Below, in pieces: positions 23,123 through 59,639 of a stretch of DNA of 64,000 bases. Position 1 is the stretch's first letter. Every line of letters begins with the position of its first letter. The position numbers and the translations under genes were made by a program. The DNA is taken from positions 31,187 to 95,186 of the forward strand of contig CAZLTL010000006.1 in the NCBI GenBank assembly GCA_964562525.1. The letters run 5' to 3'. Below the pieces are notes generated by a model. It had not been told where the DNA came from. It was given only the letters and a program-made list of their open reading frames with translations, and searched no databases. Source of the stretch: an uncultured bacterium. Its GTDB lineage: Bacteria; Omnitrophota; Omnitrophia; Omnitrophales; Aquincolibacteriaceae.

Positions 23123-24229
23123 ATGTCACGCGAAGGCCGTCTTCTTTTTTGGGCTTCTTTTATCCTTGTCGGATTTGGTTTGGTCATGGTTTATAGCTCC
23201 AGCGCCGTTGTTGCTGCTGAGCAATACAAACATGCTTCCTATTATCTGACACGCCAGGCTTTATTTGCCGGTTTGGGAGTAATGGCTTTCTTTCTCGTTG
23301 CCTCCATTCCGCTGAGTTTTTATAAAGATCACGCGCGCACAATTATGTTTTGCGCCATCGGACTGACTTTGCTTGTCTTCGTTCCTGGTTTGGGCCGTTC
23401 AGCGGGTGGTGCGCGCCGCTGGATTACTTTGGGCGGATTTAATATTCAGCCCGCTGAGTTTGTAAAGCTGGCTGCTTGTATTTATTTAGCCAACTACTTA
23501 TCCCGAAAAGTAACCGTCGTTCAAAAGGGAACTTTAAGTGTTTATATTCCACCCGCAATTTTGATCGGATTGGTGTGCCTCTTGGTTTTGGTTCAGCCCG
23601 ACTTGGGTTCTTTCGCTTTTCTTGTGATTTTGACCAGTTTGGCATTTTTCGTGACTGGTCTTCCGGTCCGCTTCGTTGCTATTGCTTTGGGTGTTTTGAT
23701 TCCTGCGTTTTATTTCCTGATTGTGCGTGTGCCTTATCGTATGAAGCGCCTCGAAGCCTATCTTAATCCTTGGGATGATCCGCAAGGCAAAGGTTTCCAG
23801 ATTATTCAGTCTTTGCTTTCTTTTGCTTTGGGCGGAACCACCGGTGCGGGGCTTGGGCAGGGAACTCAGAAACTTTATTATCTGCCGTCAGGGCACAATG
23901 ACTTTATCTTTGCTGTAATCGGCGAAGAGTTGGGGCTTTTCGGGACTTGTTTTGTTTTGGCCGCTTTTTTGGTGATTTTTTACGCCGTCGTGAAGATCGC
24001 TTCCCGGCGTCAGCAGATTTTTGAAAAACTTCTCGTTTTGCTTTTAGGCTATTACCTCGTTATTCAAGCGATGATTCATATGATGGTGTGCACCGGTTTA
24101 GTCCCTACAAAAGGCTTGCCGCTTCCTTTCATTAGTTATGGTGGCAGTGCTTTAATTGCGAATATGGTGGCGGTGGGGTTGATTATTGCGTGTGACAGAC
24201 ATACCCGAGTCGAATGGAAACCGCAATAA
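23123..24229 (+). CDS. ftsW: SEDS-family lipid II flippase/peptidoglycan glycosyltransferase
   Basis: Polytopic membrane protein with the FtsW/RodA signature (...GLVPTKGLPLPFISYGGSA). Located in the dcw cluster upstream of murG. Confidence 0.92.
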   Translation: MSREGRLLFWASFILVGFGLVMVYSSSAVVAAEQYKHASYYLTRQALFAGLGVMAFFLVASIPLSFYKDHARTIMFCAIGLTLLVFVPGLGRSAGGARRWITLGGFNIQPAEFVKLAACIYLANYLSRKVTVVQKGTLSVYIPPAILIGLVCLLVLVQPDLGSFAFLVILTSLAFFVTGLPVRFVAIALGVLIPAFYFLIVRVPYRMKRLEAYLNPWDDPQGKGFQIIQSLLSFALGGTTGAGLGQGTQKLYYLPSGHNDFIFAVIGEELGLFGTCFVLAAFLVIFYAVVKIASRRQQIFEKLLVLLLGYYLVIQAMIHMMVCTGLVPTKGLPLPFISYGGSALIANMVAVGLIIACDRHTRVEWKPQ

Positions 24230-44800: not shown

Positions 44801-45272
44801 TACGATGCGGATGCAAGCTGTTTTAAATCCAAAAATGGAATTTGAAGTTGTTGTGTTTGGAGAGCGCGGCCCGATGGTTGAAGATAAGGCTCTTTCTAAT
44901 TTGCGTATTCGTTATGCCAAAGATTTTAATTCAGCTGCTAGTTTAGTTACCAGCAAAGGCGCTATGGAGAAATTTAAAATAGGCACCAAAGTATTGATGG
45001 TTGTGCCGGAAGGTAAAGATTTTAGAAAACTAGCTTCTCAGCTCAACTTGCAAATTGTTCAGGAAGAAAATAACCATGAGAAAAATTTAGAGGCGAGTGT
45101 TGCTATGGTTGTTGGAGCTCAGAATCTTGCCAGAAATGTTGAGGCATCCGTTGATGAGGACGGTATTGAAAAAGCAGGCAAGAACTGGCGCATTACAAAG
45201 CCCTCTTTATCAAGGCTAAAGGATATTTGGCAAAGGTTTCAAGCTGCTTTGCAGGTTATGCAATCAGCGTAA
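41847..45272 (+). CDS. Modular protein B (1,141 aa): head module, RSEVR, TM hairpin, tail module (cargo-less family member)
   Basis: Signal peptide (...FPDAHA/ALP). The head aligns closely with ORF C (HIQDAHANYEAQTKIRDVIKYLNTNYGFKTILVEGA; EWRKFESGHRDFLPFV; LLVLQRVEKEL; AILITGGFHAEGM). The tail ends ...ALQVMQSA*. Confidence 0.85.
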   Translation: MRSVKHKSKRWVALGACICFVATLFPDAHAALPSIDMAVKAETPRVLNIDIPTELATVDEWYQAPSKSKPKLIVHIQDAHANYEAQTKIRDVIKYLNTNYGFKTILVEGAASELDPNILKLFPDQDRNLKLVDELAKIGEVTGAEMFLVENSDAAKGMGIEKPELYRKNFDALQKVYSEDEFVSGFFEAYEKKLGQISSRSFGPRMIQALAEWRKFESGHRDFLPFVSKLAELSKKVLEMDLGVLYSQIEWPQLTRLLVLQRVEKELEQTHDRRPTTDVEEGAQRSALSVKQQAELEKQNIIDLMKVAQSPEGLIRGLENFNEKSANLNRIGSSEVRQASAPRALMEALVEEGAKFGLNIRDYPAFAKYAGYLILRGEIVPAELFEEIKKLFDLILESLVKEAPSAAMESTDDLAARKRLLLLHRDEMLARKLLKLELTHDEWLAVLNRQDRFYPDDLNRRMLEQLGQNTRVKETGGEEASQMKKLNEAFRAAFTFYSAAVNRDTFFFQRTQEVLAQTDKAILITGGFHAEGMKYFFRKYDINYGTLTPRITQEFTNEQYRKVMMTGVEKNKAEITQQLQEGSSAVEESDTPKSKKAAKENYLGAESLIDPLSDGLVGGTRSEVRRNIVQMLAVSLGLPKIQQETSLAAPAQVAVSRQPRSIAVRFESVSAPQGFLSVLEGQRALIGAGIGIFGLVAAYLAALSSPILLILAIPFTASGMIYGFDQYFKAQYLISNATKAGSVELTDRLATSSQTEVPVVVQRTEVAQVDAEPLTFTSVLTELEVERAKSEPDAARLADLVAQLVDLAGDIEEAKQAQNVLRDLRVKYKNQLNPSQSTNLIMKVAQLAVKLNQFQQAQKLYEREEIVVTAKAPREAIFAALSPEDRGILKRMAFDDLENQIIDAKDLSASQAVAILITYGFISDKDRNAAKNLAILASLAVTKIAPQRVSELAEMVRAFFPEMVSSDLGYLGRIIDANGIGNKLDTMRMQAVLNPKMEFEVVVFGERGPMVEDKALSNLRIRYAKDFNSAASLVTSKGAMEKFKIGTKVLMVVPEGKDFRKLASQLNLQIVQEENNHEKNLEASVAMVVGAQNLARNVEASVDEDGIEKAGKNWRITKPSLSRLKDIWQRFQAALQVMQSA
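42663..42718 (+). repeat. In-frame heptamer triplet AGACGAC CAACGAC TGACGTC plus an imperfect inverted arm
   Basis: Directly follows the codons for LLVLQRVEKEL(EQTH). Encodes DRRPTTDVEEGAQRSALSV. Confidence 0.65.
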
Positions 45273-45437: not shown

Positions 45438-48400
45438 ATGCGTAACTCGTCCTGGCTTAAATTCACCGCTGGTGTATTTACGTTTCTTTTCGTTTTAAAC
45501 GACATTGGGCAAGCTGCGCCTGCGCTTGACTTTGCGGCGTCGTTGCGTTCAGAAATTCCGCGCGTATCCCATATTGAAATTCCACCTGAAATGGCAACTC
45601 TGGAAGATTGGTATGAATCGCCGAACGTAGGAGATACGCGGCTTATGCTTCACATTCAAGATGCTCACGCTCAGCCTGAAGCGCAAGCACGAATCCGTGA
45701 TCTCATCCACTATTTAAATAAACAGTATGGTTTTAAAACAGTTTTTGTTGAAGGTGCAGCGGAACAACTTGATGTGAAGTGGCTGCATCCATTTAAAAAT
45801 TCTGAACAAAACAAAAAGTGGATTGAAGAAAAAACATCTTCAGGCGAAATGTCGGGCGTTGATTTGGCATTGCTTGATGGCGTTGCCGGGCTCAAGGCTT
45901 TGCCAATTGAAACAATTGAAGGCTATCGGGATGGTTATCAAAAACTGCACGCGGTTTATACCGCTGAACCAGAGGTGAACGAGTTTATTAATTTTTTTGA
46001 CTCCAAGCTCGATTCAGCGGCATCCAAGATTTTGAATGAAAAAACAAGACGTATTCTTTCTGAGTGGAAAAAGTTTGAGTCTGGACATCGTGATTTTCTG
46101 CCTTTTGTTGAAAAATTAGCCGCGCTTGCGAAAGAGGATCTCAAGCTTGATTTAGACGCTCTCTACTCCCAAATCGAATGGCCACAACTGAGTCGGCTAC
46201 TTGTTCTTCAGCGAGTTGAGAAAGAACTCGCTGAAGCGGTGCCGACAGGGCAAAGGTCAAAAGTCAAAGGTCAAAGCCATAACTCAAAGCCGGTTAGCTG
46301 GAGAGAACAAGCGCTCGATGAAAAGGAAATAGTTCTCAATTTGCTAAAAGACGAACAAGCTAGCTCGGGATTGATCCATGGTCTCGAGCGGTTTGACGAG
46401 AAACATCTCAACTTAAACCGTATTACTGTCGGCGATGGAAGGCAATTTTCGAGCCCGCGCGCTTTAGTTGAGCAGTTAGTTGAAGAAACTCGCAAATTTG
46501 AGATTGATTTGCGAGATTATCTCGCTTTTTTGAAATACGCCGGATATTTGATTTTACGCGGCGAACTTCAGCCTTCTTTGCTTTTCAAGGAAATAGAGCG
46601 CCTTTTTGAGAAATTCCTCGAGAAGACTAACGACCCTTCGGCTGAGCTCAGGGCAAGCCAACGACTAACGACTAACGCCGGAGAAGATGTTCAGCGTGAA
46701 GCGCAGAGCGTTAAGCTGATCGAGATCTACCGCGATTCATTTCTTTTAAAAAAGTTGCTTAATCTTGAGCTTTCTCGCGAGGAGTGGCGAAAAGCGCTTG
46801 CGAAGCGGGAGGAGCTTGAACCGCAAAAGATTTTAGGGAGACTAAAGAATCTTGGAGCCGCGGTCCACGGTCCACGAGCCACGGCAAACGAAAAAAAGAT
46901 CACGAATCTTGAACCTCGAACTACGGAAAATCAGGACGTGGAGCGCACGTTTGAGAATGCCTTTGATTTTTATGATGCCGCGTTAGCGCGTGAAGATATT
47001 TTCTTTGAGAAAATTAGTTCGTCTTTGGCTCAAAACGATAAAGCGATTTTGATAACGGGCGGTTTTCATAGCGAAGGAATGAATGCGTTTTTTCGTGAAA
47101 AAGAAATTTCTTACGGAACCTTAACGCCGCGTATTACCAATCTTGCGCCCACTTCTTTGTACCGCAGCGCGATGATGCAAGCGACAAATTTGTCTAAAGT
47201 TTCGTCTCAGCCCACCCCAGCCTTGGCACAGCCGCTCGAGACTATTGCCGCCATGACTGCTTTGAGCGTGGTTGCAGTTCGTTCTGAAAGCCGACTTCAG
47301 ACTGAAGCTGCCGATTTTGTTCAATGGGTTGAGGATTTGAAATTAGTTCGGGATCCAAATAATGCCGCTGAAATCGAAACTGTTTTGCTTCGCCATCGAG
47401 ATCTTTTTAAGCATAGACCCGATGAATTTCCTGAAGAGTCGGTTAGCTTTCGCGGAAGAAATTTGCAGAAGATTCCTTCTCGTTTGATTCATCAGCTTGA
47501 TCTTACTTGGCTTAATGGCCGAAATTCTGATGCCAAACCGATTACAAGAAATGACTTGTTTCAGTTGGTATTTGACCGGCCTTTGGATGAAAACGAAGCT
47601 AAGGGGTTTGCCGGGTATGACAACATACAAAGTTTGCGTGATTTGTTCTATTTTTTGATTACTAAAGAGCATGGCAGAAGTTTGCAGCTTTTTGCAGAGC
47701 AGTATTTTGCTTTGGACTCCGGACAACGAGAGCTTTTTTTGGAGCAAGCATTTGATATTCATCAAATTACTCAGTATTTGATGGGGCAGATGGCTCGTAA
47801 CGATGATTATGAAGTTTCTGATGAGATTTTAACGGCTTACGCGAAAGCATGGCCAATTGTCATTCAATTTGGAGAGGCAGAGCTTCAATCGGGCGGGATA
47901 TTAAAGCGGTTAAAGACCGTTCCGGATTTGCCGGTTGACATCGATTTGCGCTCAAATCAGGATTCGGGGCAAGAAGTAATTTTAGAAGATTGGGAGCGAG
48001 CCCTTTTGCTGCTTGAGAACTATGTTGAGATCGGAGATGAGTCGATTGATACTCAAATCGGAGTGGTTTCATTGGGATTAAGGAGTTTGGCGGGGGATCA
48101 GGCAACGGAGGTTCGCTGGTCTCGTGCATCATCACTGGAACGGGCTGTGGCAGTTCGTCTGGAAGGAACTTTGCCTCTATCTCGCGAGGAAGCGAATCGA
48201 TATTTGCGATGGCTTGAAGTTGCGGATAGCGATTTGAATGGATTGGATCAAGCCAAACTTTTTGAGCCGAATCGTCTGGTCTTGATCGGCAAAATTGCCA
48301 GTTTGCGTGAACAGATAGTTGCTCGTCAGCTGCAGTCTGAATCTCGAGAGGATGAGCGTGATAGGGGAATGGCTCGATCAGAATTACGTACCGTTGAAAT

Positions 48401-51400
48401 TGACGGAGTCACTGCGAACTGGGAAATTGTGGAAAACCTGCTGCTGGGAGACCCCGGAAAATTTGATGCGGCATTCGAGTTTGAAAAAGACGAAGAGGTT
48501 TACTTAAAAATAAAACCCGCCAACTTCAAACAGCAGCAAGATTTGACTGAAGCGGGTTTTGAGTCTGAAAATCCGAATTGGGTTAAGAGTTTAGTGGATG
48601 ATGCGCAGCTGCTTACTTATGTGGTTGGAGCTCAGCCCAAGATCCGTGCTTATCTTGTCCAAGATAAATCAAGAAATACGACCGGCTTAAATCAAATCGA
48701 GTTTGATGCGGGCGGAGTTGTTCGGCCGAAGGGTGATAAGGGTATTTCTGCAAGCCGGTTGAATGAAGCTGGCCAACTAATTACTTTTATACCGCAGGTT
48801 TTTGTTTTAACGAAAGCCGGAGTTTTGCCCGGCAGATTTAAAACTTTATCAGAAAAAGATGAAATAGAACGTGTTGCGGCTGAAAGATTGGCTGCTGAGC
48901 AAGAAAATCTGCGGGCAGTTCAGCGTTCAACTGCCGCATTAAAAGAAATTCAAGACCGCATGAGTGCGCTCGCGGCATCGATGGAAAGTGAGTCTGCGTG
49001 GTCTTTTGTTCCTCAAAGCATTCCTAATATTGATCGTGAGGAAATTGCGGATAGCGATGACCTTAAGTTGATTCGAGCGCGCAGTCAGATGATTTCTGAA
49101 GATTTGAATTCTTTACGAATAGCTTGGCAGCAGGCGACGGATACACAAAAGAAATGGGACAGGCTGCTCCGAGATTGGGCTTCTGCTTACGATAAAATCA
49201 ACAAAGAAAGCAGTAAGCTTGCCGGCTTAAATTTTCAATCGATTGCGGTGAATCTGCAAAGCCGCCGTGAGGCATTGAATAAAATAGAAACGTATCTTGA
49301 AAGTTTGGTCAGAATAATGGGCTCGTTTCAAGCCAAAAAAGCTGAATTTGAAAGCAAATTACAGGCTGAGAAAGAAAGAAAAAGAGCGGAAATAGAGCGA
49401 GTTCGGTTCGAATCTTCTCAGAGGCGTGGTGCTTTTTGGGATAGGGTTAACCGTTGGGGGCCGTTTGGTTTGATCGCTTTTGCTGCAATGGCTCTGATTT
49501 GGTTTTTGGGGATACGCGAAAAAACTGTCGCACCTGAAGTTCGTTTGTCGCAACCGGAAATGATGGATTATTCTTTACAGGGCTTGCCCCAAGGGATTTT
49601 GGACGCAATGCAGCGAAATCGGCAGAATTTGAAATGGACCCCGCAAGAGGTTCTTTTACAGCTGCAGACTCTTATATCAAAGCATGTCACAGATGAGCTG
49701 GATTTGGGGCCAATGACAATTGCTGGTTTTCCAAAAGATTTCGATCAGCTTGAAGTTGTAAACCCGCCCAAGGATGCTTACTCGATTGTTATTCCGGGAG
49801 TGCAATTTTACCAAGCCGAGTTCATTCCGAAGCTGAATAACAAACCGATTAAGCAATTTCAGCAAATGGTTGTTTCAGTAGAAACAGTTCGCGGTGCGAA
49901 AGTATTTTATGCACAAGATACGATTGTGCAGGTGGGCGAATGGCTGCTTTCTTTAGCGGGCGATTCGATTTCTTCAGCGGAGAGTTTGCGGATGGGTGCC
50001 TACATTGCCCAGGAGTTTGCCGGCACCACCTTTGGTTTAGAGCAAATTGATCATTGGCTTGCGAAAAACGGTGCCTCGCAGGCTCCGAGTCCATTGCTGC
50101 GAGGGCAAGTCGATTTGCCGGTAACGTATTTTATCGCTAAAGAACTTGAGGGATTGCTGTCATCAGACTCTCCGTTTGTTGAGCCGTTTCGGGAGCTGGA
50201 GAAGCAATTAAACGGAGGGCAGGGGAATGTTTCCGCTTCCGGTAAGATTTTGACAGCACTCATAATCAGCGTTTACGCAGACTCTAAGCTCTATCTTGAA
50301 AAAATTAGCGTGGATGAGCAAAAGAAAATATTTGATGCATTATCAAGAGAGCTTGTCCCGCTGGTAAATCAGAATGGCGTTGGCGTTGAGGTTGCGGCGC
50401 TTGAGCGCCTGCGCGGTTCGATCACTTTTCGAATGGCGTCGCAAACTCAAATGCTTTCGGCAGGTTTAAGAAATGGTTCAATTACCTCCGAACAAGCAGT
50501 CTTGCTGTGGAATCAGCTGATGGGGTTGGAGGAGGAAAACATTTTAGCGATTGTTGGATATTTAAATCAGAAAAATATTCCTCAGGCCGCCAAGCTTTCT
50601 GGGTTTGTCAAAAGTTACTTTGAGAATGCCCGTGCTCTTAGCCAAGACCCTGATGGGGTAAGGTATATTCGCGAGCAAGTTGAATTAAGAATGAGAATGG
50701 GAACAGAGCTACTGCACAAATCTGAGCAGACAAAACCGGCCGGTCGTTCTGAAATGCGGGAGTTTGGTGAGCTGGTTGAACGTGTTATTTCGCACACTCA
50801 TTCGGATGGTGCGAACAAAGATCAACGGAAAAACCTTGTTGATTTTTTTAGGATGATGTCGCGAGGATATCAGCAAGAGTTTCTTGCGGAGCTTCAGCAT
50901 CAAGCGCAAGGACAGCCTGCAAGGAAAAAAATAAAAATTGTTTTAAGTCATGAAAATCCTGACCCCGACGCGATCATTAGCGTGATCGGCGAAGCATACG
51001 CTCAGTGGGCGGCATTAAGCGATCAAGAAAAAGATAAAACCTTGGTGATGCCTTTGCTTTACGGCGAGGTTCCGGCAAACACCTTGTATTTGATTCAAAT
51101 GCTGGAACGTCTGCTTAAGAATGATACGGTTCCGGATGAACAGGAATATGGCGGAATGCTCATGCTTCGTGGTCCACCTGCAATTTCTGGAAAGACGGCT
51201 CCCGGAACGATTCTAGATTTATTACTTATAATTAGCACTAACGCTTCTCAGCAGGACTTATTTCAGCCGTCCGGAGCGATAGAGCTAACCTTGATCGATT
51301 TTAACCCTTCTATTGCTCCAAAAGATTTGGATCCTCTTATGCCTGCGATTGTCCGAACCCTGGATCATCACATCCAAAATGTTGAAAAAGCACCGAATAT

Positions 51401-54400
51401 GACTGCGGAGGAAACTTTTATTTTTAAGAATGGCTCAGCCTCAACATTAGCCGCATTGCGCGCCGCAGGCTTAGGGACATACTTAAGTCGCTCAGATTTA
51501 TTTACGCAGCAAAATGTTTCGGCCAATTCTTTTGCAGAGGAACGCGAAAAAATGGAATCAGCTATGTCGGCAATTCCACTGCCGTTACGCCTTTTGTTCT
51601 TGCTGGCAATCATGATTGATACCGATAACTTTAAAAACGACAGTACGGTTAAACCTGTTGATATTTTGGTTTATGAGAGTTTACAGAAGTCTTTATCCGC
51701 CGGGCTGGTTTCCTTTTCTGAATTGATTCCTTACCGTGATCTTATTAAAGATTTTTTGTCGAATTATCACCTCAAAAAAGATTTTTTGCAGGATGATTCC
51801 GCTCGTTCAGTCGCAGAGGTCGATGCTCACAATCGCAAGGCCCTCGTGGACTTAATTTTAAAAGGGGATAAGAAGAAATTTCTCACAGCGGATGGGCAGC
51901 CTTTTCTTTTTTCGAGCATTGATCTTTCTTCTGTTTCTGACCTTCCGAGGATTCGTACTGTGCTTGAACTTGCCCTTCAGGATGTGTTTAACCAAGTTAT
52001 TCGTAATTATGGAACAGGTCAAGATGGCAGCTCAGCTGGGGCGGAGCAATATGCTTTTGTCGTAGTTCGTTTTGCTTTTTGGGGCGATCAAAAGGTTGAA
52101 ATTCACACCATGCGAAAAAACTTAACCGCAAATCAACCGGGGATAGATGGGCAGGCTTTGGCAAACTTTATGCAGGCCGCGATGACGACGAATGGCCAAC
52201 CACCCCTTTCAGGCACTTCGCACAAACATGGTTTTGTTTTGCTCCCGGCGACATGGATGCAGCGTAAGCAACTTTCCGGTTTATTGGAAAATTATAAAAA
52301 CCCTGAAAAAGAGACTCGCCGTTCTGAAAGCCGCGCCGGTTATATTTCGAGAAGAACTGCGATTTTTGGGGGATTGATGGCATTGTCCTCTTATTTTGTT
52401 CCTTCGTCATTAGTGGCAGAGCAAAATGCGCAAAAATGGCGTGATGGCGAAAGGCTCATGCACGGTTTAGGCGCTTGGGGTGTTGTCGCGGGCGAGTACG
52501 GCGACACCGATGCTAGTCACATGATTTATCGCGGCCAATCTTTATCTGAAATTAAAATTAGTTTTGATACAAGACGAGGACATGCTCCGCAGGCCGTAAG
52601 CATCAATGCGAATGGCGCCATTCGCGGGCATGCGGTGCAACCAGGAAGAAACGACGGTCTTGCCTCTACTTTTTATCTTCTTCGGTATCACGATGAAAAG
52701 GGCGTTTTACATGACAGCGCTTTGATTCAGAAATTGTTAGGAGTTAAAACACAAGAAGGAAAGCTTGTGTTGGATGTTGAGTTAGGCGACCGCGAAAAGG
52801 GTGCCTCCCGTTGGAAGACTATGAATGCCCAAATTGTTATTTATCCTCCCGATCGTGTTGATGGGACGTTGCGGATGGATATCCACCGCTCTGCTCCTCA
52901 GGGTTTGAAAGTGTCTCAAGAAAAATTAGGTTTAATGGAAGGTCTCATGACGGAATTTATCGCTACGAACCATAGCGGTGCGGATTCTGACTTTGATGGC
53001 AGAGAGTATTCAGATGCTCAGGCAGCTCAATTTTATGATGACAAAGGAAAACTTGTTCTCGATCGAGATTTGAAAAAGGCGCGTGATGAGGTTCCTTCTG
53101 ATTCGGGTTTCAGACTTATAACCGCGGAAGGGGATGATTGGATGCCGAAGAAAATAGGGGGTATAGCGGCTTTTGCGGTGGTAAGTGAAAAACATTCACC
53201 GGCGCACCAATTTAAGCGCATGCCTATTCCTCCGACGATGTTGGTTGTGCCGCATCAAGGATTTTATTTGGCATCAGGTGCGGTGACTTATCGGAAAGGC
53301 GAAACCAATTTTAATTCGGATAATGTGAATGTTACGGTTCAACCCGAAGATGTTGAGGCGGCTTTAAGTAAACCATCATCGGTTTCGGTTTTCTTTATGC
53401 CCGGCGCGACACCTGAATCAGAGAAGCGTATTCCGGCTATGATTCAGTCTGTGCGTCGCTCCGAAGTTCGAGGGGATCAGGACAGGCAATTGGGTGGAGC
53501 AATTTCATTTCCGATTATTATTGGTTTGCTAGGTTCGTTCACCGCCGGCGTTTATGTTTCGATGCTTACACCCGCAATCGCCGGACTCGCTGCGGCGGCC
53601 CTATTCTTTTTACCGATTTATGCTGGCGCACGCTTTTTTTGGCGGACGGTTGTGGAGGGAAAGAATTTTCCATTTCAAAATCTTCAAGACGCCTTTTTGT
53701 GGGAATCGAAACTATTGGCACGCGTTTTATCAAAGAATTGGTCTGAGATTAAACTTTGGATTTTTATGCGAAAAACGCTTTCCGCCGAAGAGATGAGGAA
53801 TCAATTTGATGAGCTCAGCTCTTGGGGGTTAATCCAATCGGACGTGGATGCTTCCTTTTCGGATTCTAAAGATTCTCTCAAGATTCGATTTAAGCTTTTA
53901 AGCTTAGATTCGGAAGAATCGGCCGCAACATCGTCTCATAGCTTGAGTATATCGCGCATTTTTGCCGATGGTGAGCGCGTTTATTTTGAATATTACGATG
54001 ATTCACAATCTCCGGCACGCTACCGCTATCGTATTTTTGATCAAAGCAATTTAAAGAGTGCTGCCGAAGATTTAAGCGCAAACGACTATCGCGCCCAATA
54101 TCGTTCAATTGCCGCACTACATCGATCTGTTCCAACAAGTTTTCTGGATGTCATGAATGATCATAATGAGAGCCCGAGACGCTGGAGCCTTTTGTTTTAT
54201 CCGCTTGTGATTGCGTTTGCAGTATTTGCAGGCTATCAGTATGTGGGAGCTGATGTGATGGACTGGATTTCGCTCTGGCATGATGTGCGATCATCTTATG
54301 TGAAGTTGTTATCGCCGCTTTCCGTTGAAGCGGTGATGGGTATTGGGGTTTTATCTTTGGCAGGTATTGTTCTAGCTTTATTCATTGTTGATCGGGTTTT

Positions 54401-57400
54401 TCTTTTTCTTCAAACATTGATATTTATGATTGCCTCGCTTCCGGCAACTTTGGTCTATGCACTTATTTATTATTCGCGCGTTCCCGATTTAATTTATTTT
54501 GCGTTTTCAAAAAGTGGCAAGCTCAAGCCGACACTTCTGAATAAGCTGGTTAATTTATCGGTTGGTTTGGATGAAATGGAACCCGAGGAACCTGAGTTCG
54601 GAGAAGAGGAAAAATCTGCCCTGATTCGTGAGCAAATAACTCAAACACTTTCAAGTTACGAGATTGGCGTTGATGATCAAATTACTTATTTTGGGAATGA
54701 TCGCCGCTTGGCAAATGAGTTGGCAGCATTTCAGCCCGATACCTATGTTGTTATTTCTCCTGAAAGTGAAAATCTCTCCCAAATTGAAATTGATTTAACG
54801 GCCCCATTTGATGGCGAGGGCATTTGGGAAAGAGCGACCGATAAAACAATTGTTTTTTTTGATGATCACGCCCAAGAAACATTTACCTTTGTGAATGAAT
54901 TGGATTTTAGCCGCGACCAGGTTGTGATTATCGACCCGGACGTTGAAGTGACTTGGGATGAACTGAATGCCTTTTTAACTCAGACGACAGGGACTGGTCT
55001 GATCGTTGGTCATCGCAGTTCCTTTCCGGAAAACTGGGAAAATTTGCTGGGGGATGACGAGCGTTTTGAGGTGCTTGAGGCTGATGATATTGTCACTATT
55101 CACATGAACGATATCAATCGTTCTGAAACACGTTTACAAAAAGCATCATTGCAAATCGTTGACGCGCTTCAAGGCTACGCAAATTGGCTTTCAACATCAG
55201 AGTATGATTTAAGCGCTTCCGCGGTGCGCAAGCAACCTCAACGACTGCGTGAAATAGGTGCTTTTATGGTTTTAGGCAATCCGGATGCTAAAACATTTAT
55301 TGAGTTTGCTAAAGGCTGGTATGAGATTGCTCAAAAAGTTCAGCGCCAAATTCCGATTGTCATAGCCGGAGGCATTGGCAGGGGAACAATAGGTTTGATT
55401 GATACGACGCTTGAGCACTATAGGCAATTAGGACGTTTGAATCCCGCAGAGGAAAAACTTTTGCTCAAAATGCGTTCTCAGGTTGAAAGTTATCTTGAAG
55501 CGAAGGCGTCTGCCGCGATTGCCCGATCAAAACAGCCTGAACATCCCGGTGTGACGGAAAAAAATGTCATCATGTTTATTTTTGCCAAAGAAGGTGTTGG
55601 GCGTTTTGCGTCTCAGCCAGGCAAAGTCGAAGCTTTTGACCCCAGACAGAATTACACCGGGGCTCCGGTGTATTTTGAAAATGGAAACTCGACAAACACT
55701 CCTGAGAACTTTGAGTTTTCCAAGCCTGTTTTTGAATCATTGGTTCAAGAGGGTTTGATTCTGCCTAATCAGAAAACTGTCATTGTGACCGAACCCGCGC
55801 TTTTGGCGAGAATTAAACCTACTTTGCTTTATGTTGCAAAGGAAAAGGGCTGGCAAGGAGATATGAATTGGCCGCGCGCGCGGGTTTATCCGCTTGATTT
55901 AAAAAAGCTGTTTAAGCCGAATAGCATGACTGCGGAAAACGCACAGCGGTTGCTGGATAAAATTCTTTATTGGGCCGGGCCCTCTAAGCGCATGATCGAA
56001 ATGTTTCCCGACTCCGCAAAGAATGTGAGTGAGCTTAAAAAATATGCAGACCAGTATTGGGGGGCTATTTCTGATGGCGGGCTTGACTTTAAAGTGCCCG
56101 TAGAAAAGCTGCGTGAGCGCGTGCCTGAGTACTCAGCTGCGGAAGGCTTGATTCAATCCACATTGATGGCAACCGATGAGTTTCTAGATGCTTTGAGTGA
56201 AGCCAGTTACAAAATTGAATTCGATACGTTGAACCGCACTTTTACGGTCACCGCCCGATCTGAGTCGCGAATGCTTGGAAAAGATAGTTTAATCACCACC
56301 GCAAAAATGACTTTTGAGAATGCTTTGGCCATGGTGAAGCGACGCGGTTCGGATGCGATTACAGATGAGACAGTGAGATTAGCCGAAAACTATCATCGTA
56401 CCCCAGAAGCATGGATCATTGCGAATGAAGAGGAACGCCGCTATGCCGAGCGGCTCTCTTCGATGACTTTGGCGGAAATGAAGGAACATGCTGAAGACAA
56501 AACAAATCCGATTTACGGAGAATTAAACAAATACCGAGGCTTCGATTCAATTGTCAATTATCTCAGTAACGTTCAGGCCCGTCGCGGCGGACAATCGCTT
56601 TCCATTGCGCAACGCTGGATCGATATCCTTACCCAAAGTAACCCGGAAGTTATGGCACAATTTTTTGAGGGTGACCCCGATAATAAGGCGTTGCAAAACT
56701 TGCGTTTTTACCGAGCGTTTTTGCGTGAAATGATTTACCGTTGGGACACCAATGAGAAACCGCGTTCCGCAGAATTGTTTAATGCTCGTTCCGAAATGCG
56801 TTTAGCGGACGAAGATCGCGCTGCCCTTGAGCAATCACTTTCGGAGCTGATGAAATATTTGTCGCAAGGACGCGTTTACCGCATGACACCGGGAATGAAA
56901 GCCTTTGAAATGGACGAGTCATCACGGCCAATGGCTTGGGATGAAATCGCTAATTTGCCTGAGGACTATTTGCCGGATGCAGTTTTATATTTTGGCAGCC
57001 GTGATGATCAGGTTCCGCAGCTTTCGATACCGGTTTTACAAAAAATGATCGCGCGTAAACCTGATTTGAAGATTGTGACCACCGGCAAATGGAGTGATAC
57101 GCATACGGAACTGGCCGGAAACTTCAAAGATGAGTCCGGCGCGCGGATTTCCGAGGCTGAGCATTTTGCCCGCATTCTCGAAAGAGAGTTGGCAATTCAA
57201 GTCGAGCGCGAATCCAATTCAACCAATACCGGACAAAATATTTCGATGGGGCGGGAAAAGTTGACCCAAGCCGGAGTTGATACAAAAAATATTAAACTAT
57301 TGGTTGTCGCTCAGCCGGCGCATCAGCGCCGTGTCGGCGCTTCGGTGTTGAAGCAATGGCTGAAGCCCGAAGAGCTTGCGGGAGGAGACTATCAATTGCA

Positions 57401-59639
57401 TGTGATTTCGGCAACACCGCGAGAGTTAGAGAAAAAAGATATCGAGATGCTCACGGATGATGAGCTTTTGGCGTTAACTGAGATTGCTTTGGGGGAAATC
57501 AAGCGAATTTATAATTATCCCGCTTCCGGATTTACGGTGCCTGTGGATGTTCCTGCGGAAGTGAATGGGGCTGAAACCAATTTAAATCTGCTGGTGGCAA
57601 AAGTCGGAAGACTGAGTCAGCGTGCTGAGCTGCCCAAGCCGACGCTTGATTTTGAATCTTTAAAGACCGAGGTTAATCAAGGCACTTATAACGCGCTTTC
57701 CGATATTCGTGACGCAATTCAAACGACGAATCTGCCTCTCGAAATGATTCTTTTTGGGTCTTATGCGGATGGGTATCAAATATCCGGCAGCGATTTAGAT
57801 TTAATGTTTAATGCCTCCATCCGCGGGTATGAGTCACAGGCAGAATCTGTCAGTCGTCGAATCATAGATCATTTGATGCAGCTTGGTTATCGGTTTGATT
57901 TGAAGCATCATGCTGCGGGCGGTGTGCTGCCATCCGTTATGCATACGACGCCCGCTGATTTTGTTGAGGCGCGCGGTCCCGGAAAATTTTTCCGTAAGGA
58001 AGAAAATAAAACCGCGTGGATTGTTTCTGCTTCTTCCGTCCGCCGCATTAATTTATTGAACGGCGATGTTCAGATTTATCAGTTTGCCCGCTCCGAAATG
58101 CGGGATGTGCCCAATTGGAAGGCGCTCGGTGCGGCGGAACAAGTTAAAACGCTTTTGTATCCCGGCAGCGGAGTTGATTTTTCCGCGGGATTGAGTTTAG
58201 CGCTGCAGCTGCCGAACCTGACTGATATTTATTATGTTGATCCCGCGTATTCAAGCCAGCAATTGCCTGAACGAAAGGCTGAAAAAGGTTATCACTATTA
58301 TCTTTATGATATTTTGGCGAATGTGGATTCGCGATATTTCTTTTCTGCCCGTGAACCGTTCTCAATGGAGGAAATTATAGCGTTTCAAAAGCAATTTGCT
58401 CAAACCGGTAAGGTCGCTATACCTATTATCTTGCCTGATTCGGGCGGACGAACGATCAATATTCATCTTGTCGCAAGTCTGTTTGAGACGGGATTTCAGT
58501 CCAAAATAGGTATTCCGGAGCAGGTTGATTTTATTCTTGTGAAAAACCCGGGTACGAATCGTCGATTGAGCCAAGAGCCTTCTTATTGGAATCAAGTTGT
58601 TGAATCTGTGCAGCCGAATGGAATTGTGGCGGTGACTTTTGCCGAGATTCCGGGTCAGGGAGTTGATTTTAAGCCGGTTCGTGATGCTCTTGGCGAGCCT
58701 CTTTTTAAATCAAGTGAATTTTCGGGACAAGGTTTGGTTTGGGCGGGACAGTGGGTTGTTTATCAGAAAAAAGACACCCGGACTGAGATTCGACGGTCAG
58801 AATTAACATTGGGAACTCGGATACAGGTACCAACTCCTGAGTTATCCCCAGCTTTTGAGAAGGTGTATGAAGCGTTGATGCTGAAGTTGAATGAACTGAC
58901 TACTGTCGAAGAAACGGCGGCGGTGATTGCTTATGGCTTTACAAACTCATCCCTCGGCCGCGAAAAGCAAGTTGCTATGTTAACTGCCCTCGTAGGACTT
59001 ATCGGCGTGAGCCGTTTCGAGATAATACAGAAGGTGATGCGTGAAAAGCATGCCGATGCTTGGGGCCGCCTGCAATCCATGGTTCGCTCGCCATCTAAAA
59101 ACCGTGTCATCTATCGAACGATTGATGCGGCGCAATTATCCGATGCGAAACTTCGTGAAGCATTGTTGAACGGAATGAAAGCCGTGTGGCTTGTGAACCC
59201 CAATCAAAAATTTCATTTACTTGCGGATGCCGATGTTTCGCAAGACGTTTTGAATCGGTTGGATTCAGATGTTAAGTCTTGGAAGTCTCAACTCGAAATC
59301 AAAGCGGATAATTTTGGTATTCAAGCTCGCGCTGATTTTGCTCTAAAGGCGAATGCGGATAGTTTTGTTTTTAGTACGACACGAGAAGAATTGCTCAATG
59401 ACCGCATGGCTTTGCCGGTGCATGAGTCTTTTTCGCAAAATGAACCTGATTATCTTGAAGCCGCGATTTTAGCTTTGGCAAATCTAGCTCAACAAGGTTC
59501 GCTGGTTGATCGCTTACTGCCCGGATTTGAGCAAGAGGGGGTAGGGCGTTATAAGTTAACCAATAATAGTCTTGTTCTTTATCTTGAAACAATTTTGGCT
59601 GATATCGAAGCGCTTCTGGCAACAGCCCAATCCGCTTAG
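45438..59639 (+). CDS. Giant modular protein C (4,733 aa): signal peptide, head module, long multi-enzyme cargo, tail module
   Basis: Uninterrupted 14.2-kb ORF with in-frame domain motifs throughout. The head is paralogous to ORFs A and B. The tail ends ...LLATAQSA*. Confidence 0.85.
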   Translation: MRNSSWLKFTAGVFTFLFVLNDIGQAAPALDFAASLRSEIPRVSHIEIPPEMATLEDWYESPNVGDTRLMLHIQDAHAQPEAQARIRDLIHYLNKQYGFKTVFVEGAAEQLDVKWLHPFKNSEQNKKWIEEKTSSGEMSGVDLALLDGVAGLKALPIETIEGYRDGYQKLHAVYTAEPEVNEFINFFDSKLDSAASKILNEKTRRILSEWKKFESGHRDFLPFVEKLAALAKEDLKLDLDALYSQIEWPQLSRLLVLQRVEKELAEAVPTGQRSKVKGQSHNSKPVSWREQALDEKEIVLNLLKDEQASSGLIHGLERFDEKHLNLNRITVGDGRQFSSPRALVEQLVEETRKFEIDLRDYLAFLKYAGYLILRGELQPSLLFKEIERLFEKFLEKTNDPSAELRASQRLTTNAGEDVQREAQSVKLIEIYRDSFLLKKLLNLELSREEWRKALAKREELEPQKILGRLKNLGAAVHGPRATANEKKITNLEPRTTENQDVERTFENAFDFYDAALAREDIFFEKISSSLAQNDKAILITGGFHSEGMNAFFREKEISYGTLTPRITNLAPTSLYRSAMMQATNLSKVSSQPTPALAQPLETIAAMTALSVVAVRSESRLQTEAADFVQWVEDLKLVRDPNNAAEIETVLLRHRDLFKHRPDEFPEESVSFRGRNLQKIPSRLIHQLDLTWLNGRNSDAKPITRNDLFQLVFDRPLDENEAKGFAGYDNIQSLRDLFYFLITKEHGRSLQLFAEQYFALDSGQRELFLEQAFDIHQITQYLMGQMARNDDYEVSDEILTAYAKAWPIVIQFGEAELQSGGILKRLKTVPDLPVDIDLRSNQDSGQEVILEDWERALLLLENYVEIGDESIDTQIGVVSLGLRSLAGDQATEVRWSRASSLERAVAVRLEGTLPLSREEANRYLRWLEVADSDLNGLDQAKLFEPNRLVLIGKIASLREQIVARQLQSESREDERDRGMARSELRTVEIDGVTANWEIVENLLLGDPGKFDAAFEFEKDEEVYLKIKPANFKQQQDLTEAGFESENPNWVKSLVDDAQLLTYVVGAQPKIRAYLVQDKSRNTTGLNQIEFDAGGVVRPKGDKGISASRLNEAGQLITFIPQVFVLTKAGVLPGRFKTLSEKDEIERVAAERLAAEQENLRAVQRSTAALKEIQDRMSALAASMESESAWSFVPQSIPNIDREEIADSDDLKLIRARSQMISEDLNSLRIAWQQATDTQKKWDRLLRDWASAYDKINKESSKLAGLNFQSIAVNLQSRREALNKIETYLESLVRIMGSFQAKKAEFESKLQAEKERKRAEIERVRFESSQRRGAFWDRVNRWGPFGLIAFAAMALIWFLGIREKTVAPEVRLSQPEMMDYSLQGLPQGILDAMQRNRQNLKWTPQEVLLQLQTLISKHVTDELDLGPMTIAGFPKDFDQLEVVNPPKDAYSIVIPGVQFYQAEFIPKLNNKPIKQFQQMVVSVETVRGAKVFYAQDTIVQVGEWLLSLAGDSISSAESLRMGAYIAQEFAGTTFGLEQIDHWLAKNGASQAPSPLLRGQVDLPVTYFIAKELEGLLSSDSPFVEPFRELEKQLNGGQGNVSASGKILTALIISVYADSKLYLEKISVDEQKKIFDALSRELVPLVNQNGVGVEVAALERLRGSITFRMASQTQMLSAGLRNGSITSEQAVLLWNQLMGLEEENILAIVGYLNQKNIPQAAKLSGFVKSYFENARALSQDPDGVRYIREQVELRMRMGTELLHKSEQTKPAGRSEMREFGELVERVISHTHSDGANKDQRKNLVDFFRMMSRGYQQEFLAELQHQAQGQPARKKIKIVLSHENPDPDAIISVIGEAYAQWAALSDQEKDKTLVMPLLYGEVPANTLYLIQMLERLLKNDTVPDEQEYGGMLMLRGPPAISGKTAPGTILDLLLIISTNASQQDLFQPSGAIELTLIDFNPSIAPKDLDPLMPAIVRTLDHHIQNVEKAPNMTAEETFIFKNGSASTLAALRAAGLGTYLSRSDLFTQQNVSANSFAEEREKMESAMSAIPLPLRLLFLLAIMIDTDNFKNDSTVKPVDILVYESLQKSLSAGLVSFSELIPYRDLIKDFLSNYHLKKDFLQDDSARSVAEVDAHNRKALVDLILKGDKKKFLTADGQPFLFSSIDLSSVSDLPRIRTVLELALQDVFNQVIRNYGTGQDGSSAGAEQYAFVVVRFAFWGDQKVEIHTMRKNLTANQPGIDGQALANFMQAAMTTNGQPPLSGTSHKHGFVLLPATWMQRKQLSGLLENYKNPEKETRRSESRAGYISRRTAIFGGLMALSSYFVPSSLVAEQNAQKWRDGERLMHGLGAWGVVAGEYGDTDASHMIYRGQSLSEIKISFDTRRGHAPQAVSINANGAIRGHAVQPGRNDGLASTFYLLRYHDEKGVLHDSALIQKLLGVKTQEGKLVLDVELGDREKGASRWKTMNAQIVIYPPDRVDGTLRMDIHRSAPQGLKVSQEKLGLMEGLMTEFIATNHSGADSDFDGREYSDAQAAQFYDDKGKLVLDRDLKKARDEVPSDSGFRLITAEGDDWMPKKIGGIAAFAVVSEKHSPAHQFKRMPIPPTMLVVPHQGFYLASGAVTYRKGETNFNSDNVNVTVQPEDVEAALSKPSSVSVFFMPGATPESEKRIPAMIQSVRRSEVRGDQDRQLGGAISFPIIIGLLGSFTAGVYVSMLTPAIAGLAAAALFFLPIYAGARFFWRTVVEGKNFPFQNLQDAFLWESKLLARVLSKNWSEIKLWIFMRKTLSAEEMRNQFDELSSWGLIQSDVDASFSDSKDSLKIRFKLLSLDSEESAATSSHSLSISRIFADGERVYFEYYDDSQSPARYRYRIFDQSNLKSAAEDLSANDYRAQYRSIAALHRSVPTSFLDVMNDHNESPRRWSLLFYPLVIAFAVFAGYQYVGADVMDWISLWHDVRSSYVKLLSPLSVEAVMGIGVLSLAGIVLALFIVDRVFLFLQTLIFMIASLPATLVYALIYYSRVPDLIYFAFSKSGKLKPTLLNKLVNLSVGLDEMEPEEPEFGEEEKSALIREQITQTLSSYEIGVDDQITYFGNDRRLANELAAFQPDTYVVISPESENLSQIEIDLTAPFDGEGIWERATDKTIVFFDDHAQETFTFVNELDFSRDQVVIIDPDVEVTWDELNAFLTQTTGTGLIVGHRSSFPENWENLLGDDERFEVLEADDIVTIHMNDINRSETRLQKASLQIVDALQGYANWLSTSEYDLSASAVRKQPQRLREIGAFMVLGNPDAKTFIEFAKGWYEIAQKVQRQIPIVIAGGIGRGTIGLIDTTLEHYRQLGRLNPAEEKLLLKMRSQVESYLEAKASAAIARSKQPEHPGVTEKNVIMFIFAKEGVGRFASQPGKVEAFDPRQNYTGAPVYFENGNSTNTPENFEFSKPVFESLVQEGLILPNQKTVIVTEPALLARIKPTLLYVAKEKGWQGDMNWPRARVYPLDLKKLFKPNSMTAENAQRLLDKILYWAGPSKRMIEMFPDSAKNVSELKKYADQYWGAISDGGLDFKVPVEKLRERVPEYSAAEGLIQSTLMATDEFLDALSEASYKIEFDTLNRTFTVTARSESRMLGKDSLITTAKMTFENALAMVKRRGSDAITDETVRLAENYHRTPEAWIIANEEERRYAERLSSMTLAEMKEHAEDKTNPIYGELNKYRGFDSIVNYLSNVQARRGGQSLSIAQRWIDILTQSNPEVMAQFFEGDPDNKALQNLRFYRAFLREMIYRWDTNEKPRSAELFNARSEMRLADEDRAALEQSLSELMKYLSQGRVYRMTPGMKAFEMDESSRPMAWDEIANLPEDYLPDAVLYFGSRDDQVPQLSIPVLQKMIARKPDLKIVTTGKWSDTHTELAGNFKDESGARISEAEHFARILERELAIQVERESNSTNTGQNISMGREKLTQAGVDTKNIKLLVVAQPAHQRRVGASVLKQWLKPEELAGGDYQLHVISATPRELEKKDIEMLTDDELLALTEIALGEIKRIYNYPASGFTVPVDVPAEVNGAETNLNLLVAKVGRLSQRAELPKPTLDFESLKTEVNQGTYNALSDIRDAIQTTNLPLEMILFGSYADGYQISGSDLDLMFNASIRGYESQAESVSRRIIDHLMQLGYRFDLKHHAAGGVLPSVMHTTPADFVEARGPGKFFRKEENKTAWIVSASSVRRINLLNGDVQIYQFARSEMRDVPNWKALGAAEQVKTLLYPGSGVDFSAGLSLALQLPNLTDIYYVDPAYSSQQLPERKAEKGYHYYLYDILANVDSRYFFSAREPFSMEEIIAFQKQFAQTGKVAIPIILPDSGGRTINIHLVASLFETGFQSKIGIPEQVDFILVKNPGTNRRLSQEPSYWNQVVESVQPNGIVAVTFAEIPGQGVDFKPVRDALGEPLFKSSEFSGQGLVWAGQWVVYQKKDTRTEIRRSELTLGTRIQVPTPELSPAFEKVYEALMLKLNELTTVEETAAVIAYGFTNSSLGREKQVAMLTALVGLIGVSRFEIIQKVMREKHADAWGRLQSMVRSPSKNRVIYRTIDAAQLSDAKLREALLNGMKAVWLVNPNQKFHLLADADVSQDVLNRLDSDVKSWKSQLEIKADNFGIQARADFALKANADSFVFSTTREELLNDRMALPVHESFSQNEPDYLEAAILALANLAQQGSLVDRLLPGFEQEGVGRYKLTNNSLVLYLETILADIEALLATAQSA
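46255..46284 (+). repeat. In-frame heptamer triplet GGTCAAA AGTCAAA GGTCAAA followed by GCCATAACT
   Basis: Directly follows LLVLQRVEKEL(AEAVPTGQ). TCAAAGCCATAACT (46271-46284) is identical to 10891-10904 in the mraY-murD spacer element. Confidence 0.75.
46658..46678 (+). repeat. In-frame heptamer triplet CCAACGA CTAACGA CTAACGC
   Basis: Encodes QRLTTNA. It lies in a segment absent from the ORF B head at the equivalent position. Confidence 0.7.
46862..46882 (+). repeat. In-frame heptamer triplet GGTCCAC GGTCCAC GAGCCAC
   Basis: Encodes VHGPRAT. It lies in a segment absent from the ORF B head at the equivalent position. Confidence 0.7.
50925..51665 (+). other. ORF C cargo: DHH-family [15 protein letters not shown] domain
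   Basis: Motif I SHENPDPDAI, motif II LIDFNPS, motif III LDHH (DHH at 51363-51371), motif IV MIDTDNF. Confidence 0.75.
55260..55820 (+). other. ORF C cargo: DUF218/YdcF-like module 1
   Basis: FMVLGNPD...IVIAGGIGRG...ENGNSTNTPENF...VIVTEPALLARI follows the DUF218 pattern (VLG...sGG...E..S.nT.eN...lVT..H..R). The final His is not conserved. Confidence 0.45.
56979..57355 (+). other. ORF C cargo: DUF218/YdcF-like module 2
   Basis: VLYFGSRDD...IVTTGKW...SEAEHFARIL...ERESNSTNTGQNI...LLVVAQPAHQRRV closely follows the DUF218 signature. Confidence 0.6.
57738..57818 (+). other. ORF C cargo: Pol-beta-superfamily nucleotidyltransferase core motif
   Basis: LEMILFGSYADGYQISGSDLDLMFNAS matches hG[GS]x9-13 D-h-[DE]-h. 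Confidence 0.65.
58794..59636 (+). other. ORF C tail module (shared with A and B)
   Basis: It starts at the degenerate motif RRSELT. AAVIAYGFTNSS...MLTALVGL parallels B AVAILITYGFISD...LAILASLAV. The C-terminal approximately 40 aa follow the pattern EGhx...SL...QSA*. Confidence 0.6.

Follow-up and report, generated by a model that had tools for sequence, protein, structure and literature searches.

The DNA analysed here, hereafter the window, is a stretch of 64,000 nucleotides from an Omnitrophota chromosome in which three very large open reading frames (ORFs A, B and C) all lie on one strand. The subject of this report, ORF C (45438-59639; 4,733 amino acids, aa), comprises a signal peptide, an N-terminal domain (N-domain) resembling TIKI-type hydrolases, approximately ten cargo modules and a tail ending in ..AQSA. 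It stands in tandem with ORF B (41847-45272; 1,141 aa), a minimal member of the same family with a signal peptide, the N-domain, a single boundary motif (RSEVR, 43707), a transmembrane (TM) segment and a C-terminal domain with a ..MQSA end. The third member, ORF A (12435-23033; 3,532 aa), is sited between murD and ftsW. All features of these ORFs described below are on the + strand. The three ORFs have in common a Sec-type signal peptide, a homologous N-terminal domain of ~560 aa and a C-terminus of the form ..SA or ..AA. A public protein library holds a 4,733-aa protein (P0004) identical to ORF C, and an identical copy of the ORF C 3' end and its flank is found on two independent Logan contigs, so ORF C is not an accident of assembly.

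An earlier interpretation made from the letters alone (the sequence-only reading) had described ORF C as an operon-like chain of enzyme-like modules, each bounded by the pentapeptide R-S-E-x-R (RSExR). This motif occurs nine times in ORF C, with an additional RSELT. The first copy, RSESR at 47280-47294, is preceded by a low-confidence linker, and the second is RSELR at 48375-48389. The later copies are exactly where they had been listed, i.e., RSEMR at 50745, 56787 and 58089, RSESR at 52320 and 56256, RSEVR at 53457, RSETR at 55119 and RSELT at 58794. Residue shuffles of ORF C gave an expectation of 0.105 copies (maximum of 3 in 20,000), and those of ORFs A, B and C together gave 0.17 (maximum of 4 in 20,000) against 14 observed, ORF A contributing four copies of RSEAR (15162, 18384, 19746 and 22179). 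In the rest of the window, read in all six frames, there was one RSExR, an out-of-frame chance match at 14029, and none was present in the other genes of the window.

The motif divides ORF C into modules of 177-554 aa, a wider range than the 150-450 aa first proposed. The N-terminal signal peptide, which is of the Sec type, was read from the sequence as MRNSSWLKFTAGVFTFLFVLNDIGQA (45438-45515). The module M3 (50745-52319) starts with RSEMR and contains the DHH motif at 51363-51371. Against the Pfam DHH model it scored 17.1 bits (E 0.0067), below the cut-off of 28.1, and a homologue at locus L003 was likewise short at 22.2 bits. NCBIfam returned only weak matches to family II pyrophosphatases, and a PDB sequence search with this module gave no match. 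Members of the DHH family carry four DHH motifs (DxD, D, DHH, D) and, in the DHHA2 domain, a basic motif that binds substrate. The L003 homologue (616-1180) aligns with M3 from motif to motif at 35-40% identity, and both proteins keep HENPDPDA (HxxPDxDA), IDFN, DHH, DTDNF and GDKKKF (a DHHA2-like GDKK). The assignment of M3 as DHH-DHHA2-type thus holds weakly, by its conserved motifs. The following module, M4 (52320-53456, starting with RSESR), gave no homologue in searches of Pfam, NCBIfam and the family ORFs; it bears a Tat/Sec-like signal, ISRRTAIFGGLMALSSYFVPSSLVA, at 52344-52418 (Tat, twin-arginine translocation). M5 (53457-55118, starting with RSEVR) is a polytopic membrane module with a soluble part. 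Its TM segments, at aa 2685-2725 (53490-53612) and aa 2918-3011 (54189-54470), agree with the two membrane regions predicted earlier, and its first 98 aa are 70% identical to L006, in an alignment that begins exactly at an RSELR of that locus (subject 1789).

Two modules resemble DUF218. The first, M6 (55119-56255, starting with RSETR), contains VLGNPD, IAGGIGRGT and ENGNSTNTPEN (55677-55709) and scored 15.7 bits (E 0.014) against Pfam DUF218, under the gathering score of 27.6. Its homologue in L045 (from 2013) begins at its own motif and reached 25.7 bits, and the N-terminal block of M6 is common to at least 30 giant proteins. The second, M8a (56787-57620, starting with RSEMR and containing ERESNSTNTGQN at 57204-57239), scored 30.3 bits, just above the same cut-off. 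The GG.G and E..S.NT.EN motifs are present in both. Between them lies M7 (56256-56786, starting with RSESR), a small helical module whose weak relatives, P0095 and L058, end at their own RSExR. M8a is followed by a Pol-beta-type nucleotidyltransferase, M8b (57621-58088), with relatives in P0050 and P0087 and a score of 21.4 bits against NTP_transf_2, marginally over the cut-off of 21. Its signature GSYADGYQISGSDLDL (GS..SDLD) was correctly recognized in the sequence-only reading, although it lies at 57756-57803 rather than 57738-57818; it follows the G[GS]x9-13 D-x-D pattern, while a third catalytic Asp was not located. Both DUF218 assignments and that of the nucleotidyltransferase hold weakly on this profile and motif evidence. 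Of the enzyme labels given earlier, the second DUF218 module and the nucleotidyltransferase therefore pass their thresholds narrowly, while the DHH and first DUF218 labels stay below theirs with motifs conserved.

The C-terminal part of ORF C is more difficult to classify. M9 (58089-58778, starting with RSEMR) is a conserved alpha/beta module with LYPGSGxD and TD..VD motifs; LLYPGSGVDFS lies at 58152-58184 and IYYVDPAY at 58227-58250. These two strings, together with the DHH, ENGNSTNTPEN and ERESNSTNTGQN landmarks, were all located in ORF C as the sequence-only reading had it. A homologue of M9 in L004 (from 1016) is 50% identical, begins at the motif and is the first cargo module there as opposed to the ninth in ORF C; further relatives are P0047 and the free-standing P0057. 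M9 had no match in Pfam, NCBIfam or PDB sequences, and its AlphaFold2 (AF2) model was poor (mean predicted local distance difference test, pLDDT, 41.5), showing just an alternating beta/alpha pattern of secondary structure, so the label "Rossmann-like" is tentative. The tail (58779-59636) ends in ..LLATAQSA-COOH. Its boundary, formerly placed at RSELT (58794), is better read as RTEIR (58779-58793) followed by RSELT. It is homologous to the tail of P0093, which begins at RSEMR, and tail sequences are too divergent for modelling from an alignment. The modules called Rossmann-like, helical and exported, and the tail, are without an assigned fold.

The N-domain of ORF C (45525-47183) has a TIKI/EreA/ChaN-like alpha/beta core interrupted by a helical insert of ~400 aa. 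Across 60 members (alignment A2), residues Q74, D75, H77, E105, Y163, R518, G541, G542 and H544 are invariant. PF04187, the ChaN model of the Tiki superfamily, gave a weak match in 12 of the 60 members, none of them reaching threshold (lowest E 0.0012), and a PDB profile search with the N-domain found no superfamily member. The AF2 model (pLDDT 71.6) displayed the TIKI alpha/beta fold and closed with a low-confidence linker of ~30 aa immediately ahead of the first RSExR. A Foldseek search of this model against the PDB yielded no significant match, which we attribute to the dominance of the helical insert. The TIKI superfamily uses a set of two His and two Glu residues: RRSP has E3900-x-H3902, E3930 and H4030, while H85/E113 belong to the set in Bcr135 (PMC6254334). 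As aligned, D75-x-H77, E105 and H544 of the N-domain reproduce this set, with Asp in place of the first Glu, and the H77-E105 spacing of 28 equals that of H85/E113 in Bcr135 and H3902/E3930 in RRSP (PMC6254334). The N-domain thus has the parallel beta-sheet core of the superfamily (Tiki, RRSP, erythromycin esterases, ChaN, PrgY/TraB), with acid-x-His, Glu and His at strand ends and an identical His-Glu spacing. It departs from the other members in the splitting of the core by the ~400-aa helical insertion, in the Asp that replaces the first Glu, and in its sub-threshold scores with Pfam models.

To delimit the family, the N-domain was scanned against 185,579 species genomes (one per species), which gave 158 stretches encoding it; 80 of these loci were retrieved. 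The genomes are almost all labelled Candidatus Omnitrophota, and the family ORFs are 1,000-7,800 aa long. An exhaustive phmmer search with ORF C aa 3254-4452 against 1.84 billion representatives returned only 94 hits. The best of these were giants of 1,800-7,830 aa, which bear as many as 17 motifs, the N-domain signatures QDxH/GGFH and a ..[A/S]A end. Free-standing relatives appeared at lower scores, namely DUF218 proteins with lengths of 165-283 aa and, for the 58089 module (M9), one protein of 269 aa. The sequence-only reading had asked whether the closest homologues of each module are free-standing; for most modules they instead form part of another giant protein. No protein was returned by a word-indexed search with 1,506 aa, and the same kind of search with the N-domain or a 60-sequence profile gave just 2-3 proteins, the method having little sensitivity for the family; scanning metagenomes with the 2,964-aa cargo region likewise gave no relative. 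ORF C represents, in this window, a modular polyprotein-like family that spans the phylum and is delimited by the motif; the sequence-only reading had understated this.

In the family ORFs of the 80 loci, RSExR occurs 180 times in 164 thousand aa (1.10 per 1,000 aa), at a median motif-to-motif spacing of 311 aa, as compared with 0.08 per 1,000 aa in the non-family ORFs of those loci, where the exceptions are adjacent giant ORFs, i.e., tandem members. No other gapped pentamer is as over-represented as RSExR in most of the long members, whose first 3,900 aa hold 5-10 copies. The pattern extends beyond the pentapeptide: position -1 is small (A, S or V), x is V, M, L or A, and +1 is E, G or S, followed by an acidic stretch. 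Some lineages have the variants RAExR, RTExR or HPExR. In addition, the x residue is more uniform within a protein than expected (0.36 vs 0.18, a value reached in 0 of 5,000 shuffles). In this genome it reads AAAA in ORF A and SLMSVTSMM in ORF C. Elsewhere, L040 has LLLLLLL and P0032 twelve L, and paralogues of one genome differ. One clade (P0038, P0026, L018, L021) is without RSExR and instead repeats [AG]xSLG (GASLG, AASLG) 6-13 times per protein; in P0038, ASSLG is aligned where ORF C has RSETR, at the start of the DUF218-like module. Judged from these alignments, lineage switching combined with a uniform x within each protein is the behaviour of a recognition site co-evolving with its enzyme, and unlike that of passive linkers.

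The correspondence between motif and module borders was consistent across several comparisons. Homologues of M3, M5, M6, M8 and M9 in other giant proteins begin at RSExR (BLAST against the family ORFs; phmmer), and those of M8a start 0 or -1 residues from the motif in P0006, P0008, P0010, P0011, P0012, P0019 and P0060. None of ten Pfam domains in P0006, P0011 and P0018 was interrupted by a motif, and several of them begin 9-40 aa past one. A decayed boundary within ORF C, RAELP (57621), which parts the second DUF218 module from the nucleotidyltransferase, is at the position where P0006, P0010, P0012 and P0019 carry a full RSExR (DUF218 start +257-267 aa). Mismatched boundaries or a lack of independent homologues had been named as grounds for abandoning the idea of motif-bounded modules; neither applies, as the homologues begin at motifs and a predicted linker precedes the first one. 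By homology, then, the motif marks real module boundaries.

Cargo between these boundaries turns over rapidly. In paralogues and relatives it includes metallo-beta-lactamase (MBL)-fold and cyclic nucleotide (cNMP)-binding domains, a J domain, a TrmB-like methyltransferase, a flavin oxidoreductase, a cytidylyltransferase, Maf, inositol monophosphatase and an ARMT1-like phosphatase. The near relative UBA2337 has a UvrD that is 96% identical to that encoded in the window, whereas its ORF C orthologue (L006 + P0093, 4,958 aa) is only 51-57% identical in the N-domain, and the N-domain of its ORF B is 79% identical. The orthologue shares with ORF C only the N-domain, the M4/M5 junction, the first DUF218-like module and the tail. 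By these identities the family genes evolve far faster than neighbouring genes, and the mostly different cargo of the UBA2337 orthologue indicates that cargo is exchanged quickly, cassette by cassette, at the motif.

A number of modules carry their own targeting signals. The pattern RRxF was found nine times within 40 aa past internal motifs, compared with 2.1 expected (p = 4e-4), and six of these are textbook cases. These signals are canonical Tat signals (RRxF[LV] and an h-region), two with the lipobox LTGC; examples are ..NRRQFLGIFTAG.. (L006-1102), ..SRRDFVTTTFVAAGFVALTGC.. (L013-1299), RSEMRRRDFLGMM...GLTGC (L072-1351), ..NRREFLIAGLGAAAAG..VRA (P0012-687) and ..TRRKFLGALAVG..AIAQ (P0046-883). 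Tat signals direct the export of folded proteins from the cytoplasm and function at or near a free N-terminus, and the Cys of a lipobox must become the N-terminus. Since Tat and lipoprotein signals placed after internal motifs would be unworkable deep inside an intact chain, we read ORF C as a cut polyprotein. The description of ORF C as operon-like is upheld in that its modules behave as separate genes, with Tat, lipoprotein or TM signals of their own and exchange between relatives.

Taken together, the sequence evidence suggests that ORF C is probably a polyprotein precursor of an Omnitrophota-specific family that is processed at RSExR. In the proposed scheme, one translated chain would comprise the Sec signal peptide, the TIKI/EreA/ChaN-like hydrolase domain, a variable string of cargo and a conserved tail whose last residue is Ala. 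R-S-E-x-R would stand at the head of each module, preceded by a small residue and followed by acidic ones, with x hydrophobic or small, and this pentapeptide would serve as the recognition site of a site-specific endopeptidase that separates the chain into individual proteins. The cytoplasmic products would be nucleotide and small-molecule enzymes, i.e., the DHH-DHHA2 protein, two DUF218 proteins and the nucleotidyltransferase; the other products would include the Tat/Sec-exported protein (52320), the polytopic membrane protein (53457) and the exported N-terminal hydrolase. We infer cleavage itself, the exact place of the cut in or next to the motif, and the identity of the protease. A broader proposal is plausible, albeit one we hold short of probable: the Omnitrophota may have a cellular counterpart of the viral polyprotein strategy, with dozens of paralogous "operons without stop codons" per lineage, cut at RSExR or [AG]xSLG, perhaps by the TIKI-type domain at their head, and perhaps with the same code in proteins of 30-150 thousand aa.

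The N-domain is the sole universally linked protease candidate. The TIKI superfamily contains site-specific endopeptidases (Tiki, RRSP) as well as esterases, and by analogy the N-domain may be an esterase instead of a peptidase. That it acts as the protease seems rather doubtful to us, because the N-domain would be exported, whereas several products need to be released in the cytoplasm. Several observations weigh against the polyprotein interpretation or its details. A Sec signal peptide is present at the start of virtually all full-length members, which predicts an extracytoplasmic N-domain. The Tat signals and cytosolic-type enzymes imply cytoplasmic release, so that the protease may be something else. 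No conserved protease gene adjoins the family loci, which are flanked by dnaX, an ABC transporter and tRNA synthetases. In some of the long members, a recurring motif could not be recognised. Finally, one recent preprint treats Omnitrophota giants as single proteins with a signal peptide and TM segments, and suppresses internal signal-peptide calls as artefacts (10.64898/2026.06.07.730766). A conserved protease or secretion gene linked to the family loci was ruled out in our survey, since the genes next to them are of the housekeeping kind.

What marks the Omnitrophota out as odd is their giant ORFs. Published work is undecided between single proteins and precursors, and names the missing cleavage points as an obstacle to dissecting these ORFs by structure and function. 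The giants described so far, termed "archaeovorins" or "multi-enzyme metabolic clusters", are full of divergent enzyme domains (10.1101/2023.11.21.568195; 10.64898/2026.06.07.730766). The giants of both preprints resemble the ORF C family in belonging to the same phylum, in their very long ORFs, signal peptide and scattered TM segments, and in their many divergent cytosolic-type enzyme domains (methyltransferases, nucleotide hydrolases). They differ in size (>10-30 thousand aa, versus 1-8 thousand aa in the ORF C family), and the latter is set apart by its defined TIKI-like N-domain, boundary pentapeptide and C-terminal Ala signature. Cleavage after translation was suggested in the earlier preprint, which proposed C39 or S8 peptidase domains and stated that the cleavage points were unknown (10.1101/2023.11.21.568195), while the words cleavage, motif and polyprotein are absent from the later one (10.64898/2026.06.07.730766). 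Our literature search found no paper joining Omnitrophota with polyproteins, and the boundary pentapeptide, the post-motif targeting signals, the TIKI-like head and the C-terminal Ala signature were not found described in the giant-protein literature searched.

We therefore weighed processing at RSExR against four other accounts of the family. The preprints take the Omnitrophota giants as single polypeptides with a signal peptide and TM segments or a TM anchor, a point against cleavage, and in ORF C the signal peptide and internal TM segments could likewise carry a single chain back and forth across the membrane. On this view, RSExR would serve as a hinge, or for docking or topogenesis, between the domains of an uncleaved, membrane-anchored multi-enzyme cluster. 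We consider this unlikely, given that an invariant pentapeptide over hundreds of unrelated junctions and many genomes is atypical of ordinary linkers, that internal Tat signals with lipoboxes would be senseless in an uncut chain, and that the motif class switches by lineage at equivalent positions. A second account, in which the motif is mainly a DNA-level or recombination junction (CGY TCN GAA NNN CGN) for in-frame swapping of cassettes, whether or not proteolysis follows, fits the fact that cassettes always start at the motif and are exchanged between relatives. It also fits the codon bias of the first Arg (CGY in 152 of 180 motifs, versus 43% background; L003-L082) and of the Ser (TCN in 170 of 180, versus 68% background, with TCC alone at 49%), as well as a 14-aa junction, ARSEARS[VA]DSGQAR, present in duplicate in ORF A at 19743 and 22176. 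The codons of the Glu and last Arg are at background usage, and the bias may stem either from a common ancestry of the junctions or from a constraint on the nucleotides. However, third codon positions are free, so that only 9-10 of 15 nucleotides are fixed, the flanking preferences (-1 small, +1 to +6 acidic) indicate selection on the peptide, and the variant clades alter the peptide class beyond codons. As the principal role of the motif, a recombination junction is very improbable; it is in any case compatible with cleavage.

The modules could also be parted during translation, by ribosomal skipping or by termination-reinitiation at the motif in the manner of viral 2A, which would yield independent products with no need of a protease and might accord with the M, V or L found at x in most motifs. 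We regard this as extremely improbable. With TTA, GTT, AGC, ACA and GCN among the x codons of the window, x does not act as a start codon, which excludes internal translation starts there; moreover, there is no Shine-Dalgarno-like sequence, and the upstream context required for 2A-like skipping is not conserved. To our knowledge, 2A-like separation has no bacterial precedent. A similar layout is known from the MARTX toxins, single chains of 3,500-5,300 aa with conserved ends, a central effector array reshuffled between strains, and release at short intervening sites. An account in which a predatory or epibiotic cell uses the ends of the ORF C protein for translocation into prey, where the cargo is freed at RSExR, would explain this parallel in layout, the hypervariable cargo between close relatives, and the N-terminal signal peptide in essentially all members. 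Effector-typical cargo (J domain, MBL/cNMP, DHH, nucleotidyltransferase), an N-domain fold class shared with the MARTX effector RRSP and the type III effector HopBA1, and the proposal of Omnitrophota as predators also speak for it. We nonetheless judge such delivery improbable. MARTX toxins have features of their own, i.e., a cysteine protease domain activated by host inositol hexakisphosphate (InsP6) that cuts after Leu, glycine-rich repeats, and type I secretion. Pfam domains of the MARTX type (repeats, cysteine protease) were not found in any of the three ORFs, the family is without repeat or pore-forming regions, and neither type I secretion system genes nor any other secretion system are linked to the loci. 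RRSP itself, a MARTX effector, has the TIKI fold (PMC6254334, PMC6315884), yet the TIKI-like domain is cargo in MARTX and the conserved head in the ORF C family, where some cargo has Tat or lipoprotein signals that are more simply explained as targeting in the producer cell. Besides, the TrmB-like methyltransferase, Maf and inositol monophosphatase look like housekeeping proteins. Rapid cassette-wise exchange of cargo is common to MARTX, polymorphic toxins and the ORF C family.

Processing at RSExR as the preferred interpretation has a close analogy in viral polyproteins (picornavirus 3C and potyvirus NIa sites), in which one ORF gives many proteins through short sites for a dedicated protease, and whose sites vary by lineage together with the protease. 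The ORF C family differs from them in its location on a cellular chromosome, in having multiple paralogues per genome, and in its metabolic-enzyme and envelope cargo. The boundary pentapeptide provides a concrete set of candidate cut sites and a rule for dividing these ORFs for structure prediction and annotation. A cut chain would explain otherwise "impossible" topology predictions, such as cytosolic enzymes on the outside and signal peptides in mid-chain, and may point to a new specificity within the TIKI hydrolase superfamily. If correct, the family would be an uncommon example of a cellular organism that expresses genes as polyproteins on a large scale and rapidly swaps the encoded proteins as cassettes.

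In nearly every complete member the C-terminus is ..[A/S/x]A-COOH (AQSA, MQSA, AVAA, SASA, QRAA), and in the window these ends lie at 59613-59636 (ORF C), 45246-45269 (ORF B) and 23007-23030 (ORF A). By analogy with ssrA tags or PDZ ligands, this ending could mark the chain for an AAA+ unfoldase or for a protease that processes C-termini. At the opposite end, RSEIP (45546-45560) in ORF C and KAETP (41964-41978) in ORF B, each followed by RV, are found just past the predicted signal-peptide cleavage site; they may be a coincidence or the remnant of a site. Some lineages, several of them labelled Planctomycetia, have a stand-alone N-domain gene ending in ..EE (L059 9800-21343, L075 7765-18779, L068 and L071), after which comes a separate giant ORF (1,400-3,100 aa or more) that has its own signal peptide and is without a recurring motif. 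This split, two-gene arrangement indicates that the link between N-domain and giant protein predates their fusion.

The remainder of the window is typical chromosomal sequence, with murE, murF, mraY, murD, ftsW, murG, murC, murB, ddl, ftsQ and ftsA, as well as genes for MlaC, an MMPL transporter, gcvT/gcvP, uvrD, plsC and an M48 peptidase. The chromosomal division and cell wall (dcw), gcv and uvrD genes rule out a phage or mobile-element origin. Within the dcw cluster the order is murD (10984-12237), ORF A (12435-23033) and ftsW (23123-24229), and ftsA (end 30645) is followed downstream by the MlaC gene instead of ftsZ. The placement of ORF A had no second case among the other 80 loci, and the idea of a conserved dcw synteny for ORF A was therefore rejected. 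The cargo of ORF A (modules 15162-18383 and 18384-19745) includes a membrane module with a HELGH zinc-protease-like motif and an MBL-fold hydrolase with a weak Apyc1-like match, followed by a cNMP-binding domain; its J domain stops six residues ahead of the next RSEAR. The tandem of ORFs B and C is kept in L004, L005 and L006, and the upstream frame of L006 ends in ..EVMQSA*, as does ORF B. In other genomes, the gene found upstream of a family gene on the same strand is repeatedly dnaX or a fused ABC-ABC2 transporter gene (12 loci each).

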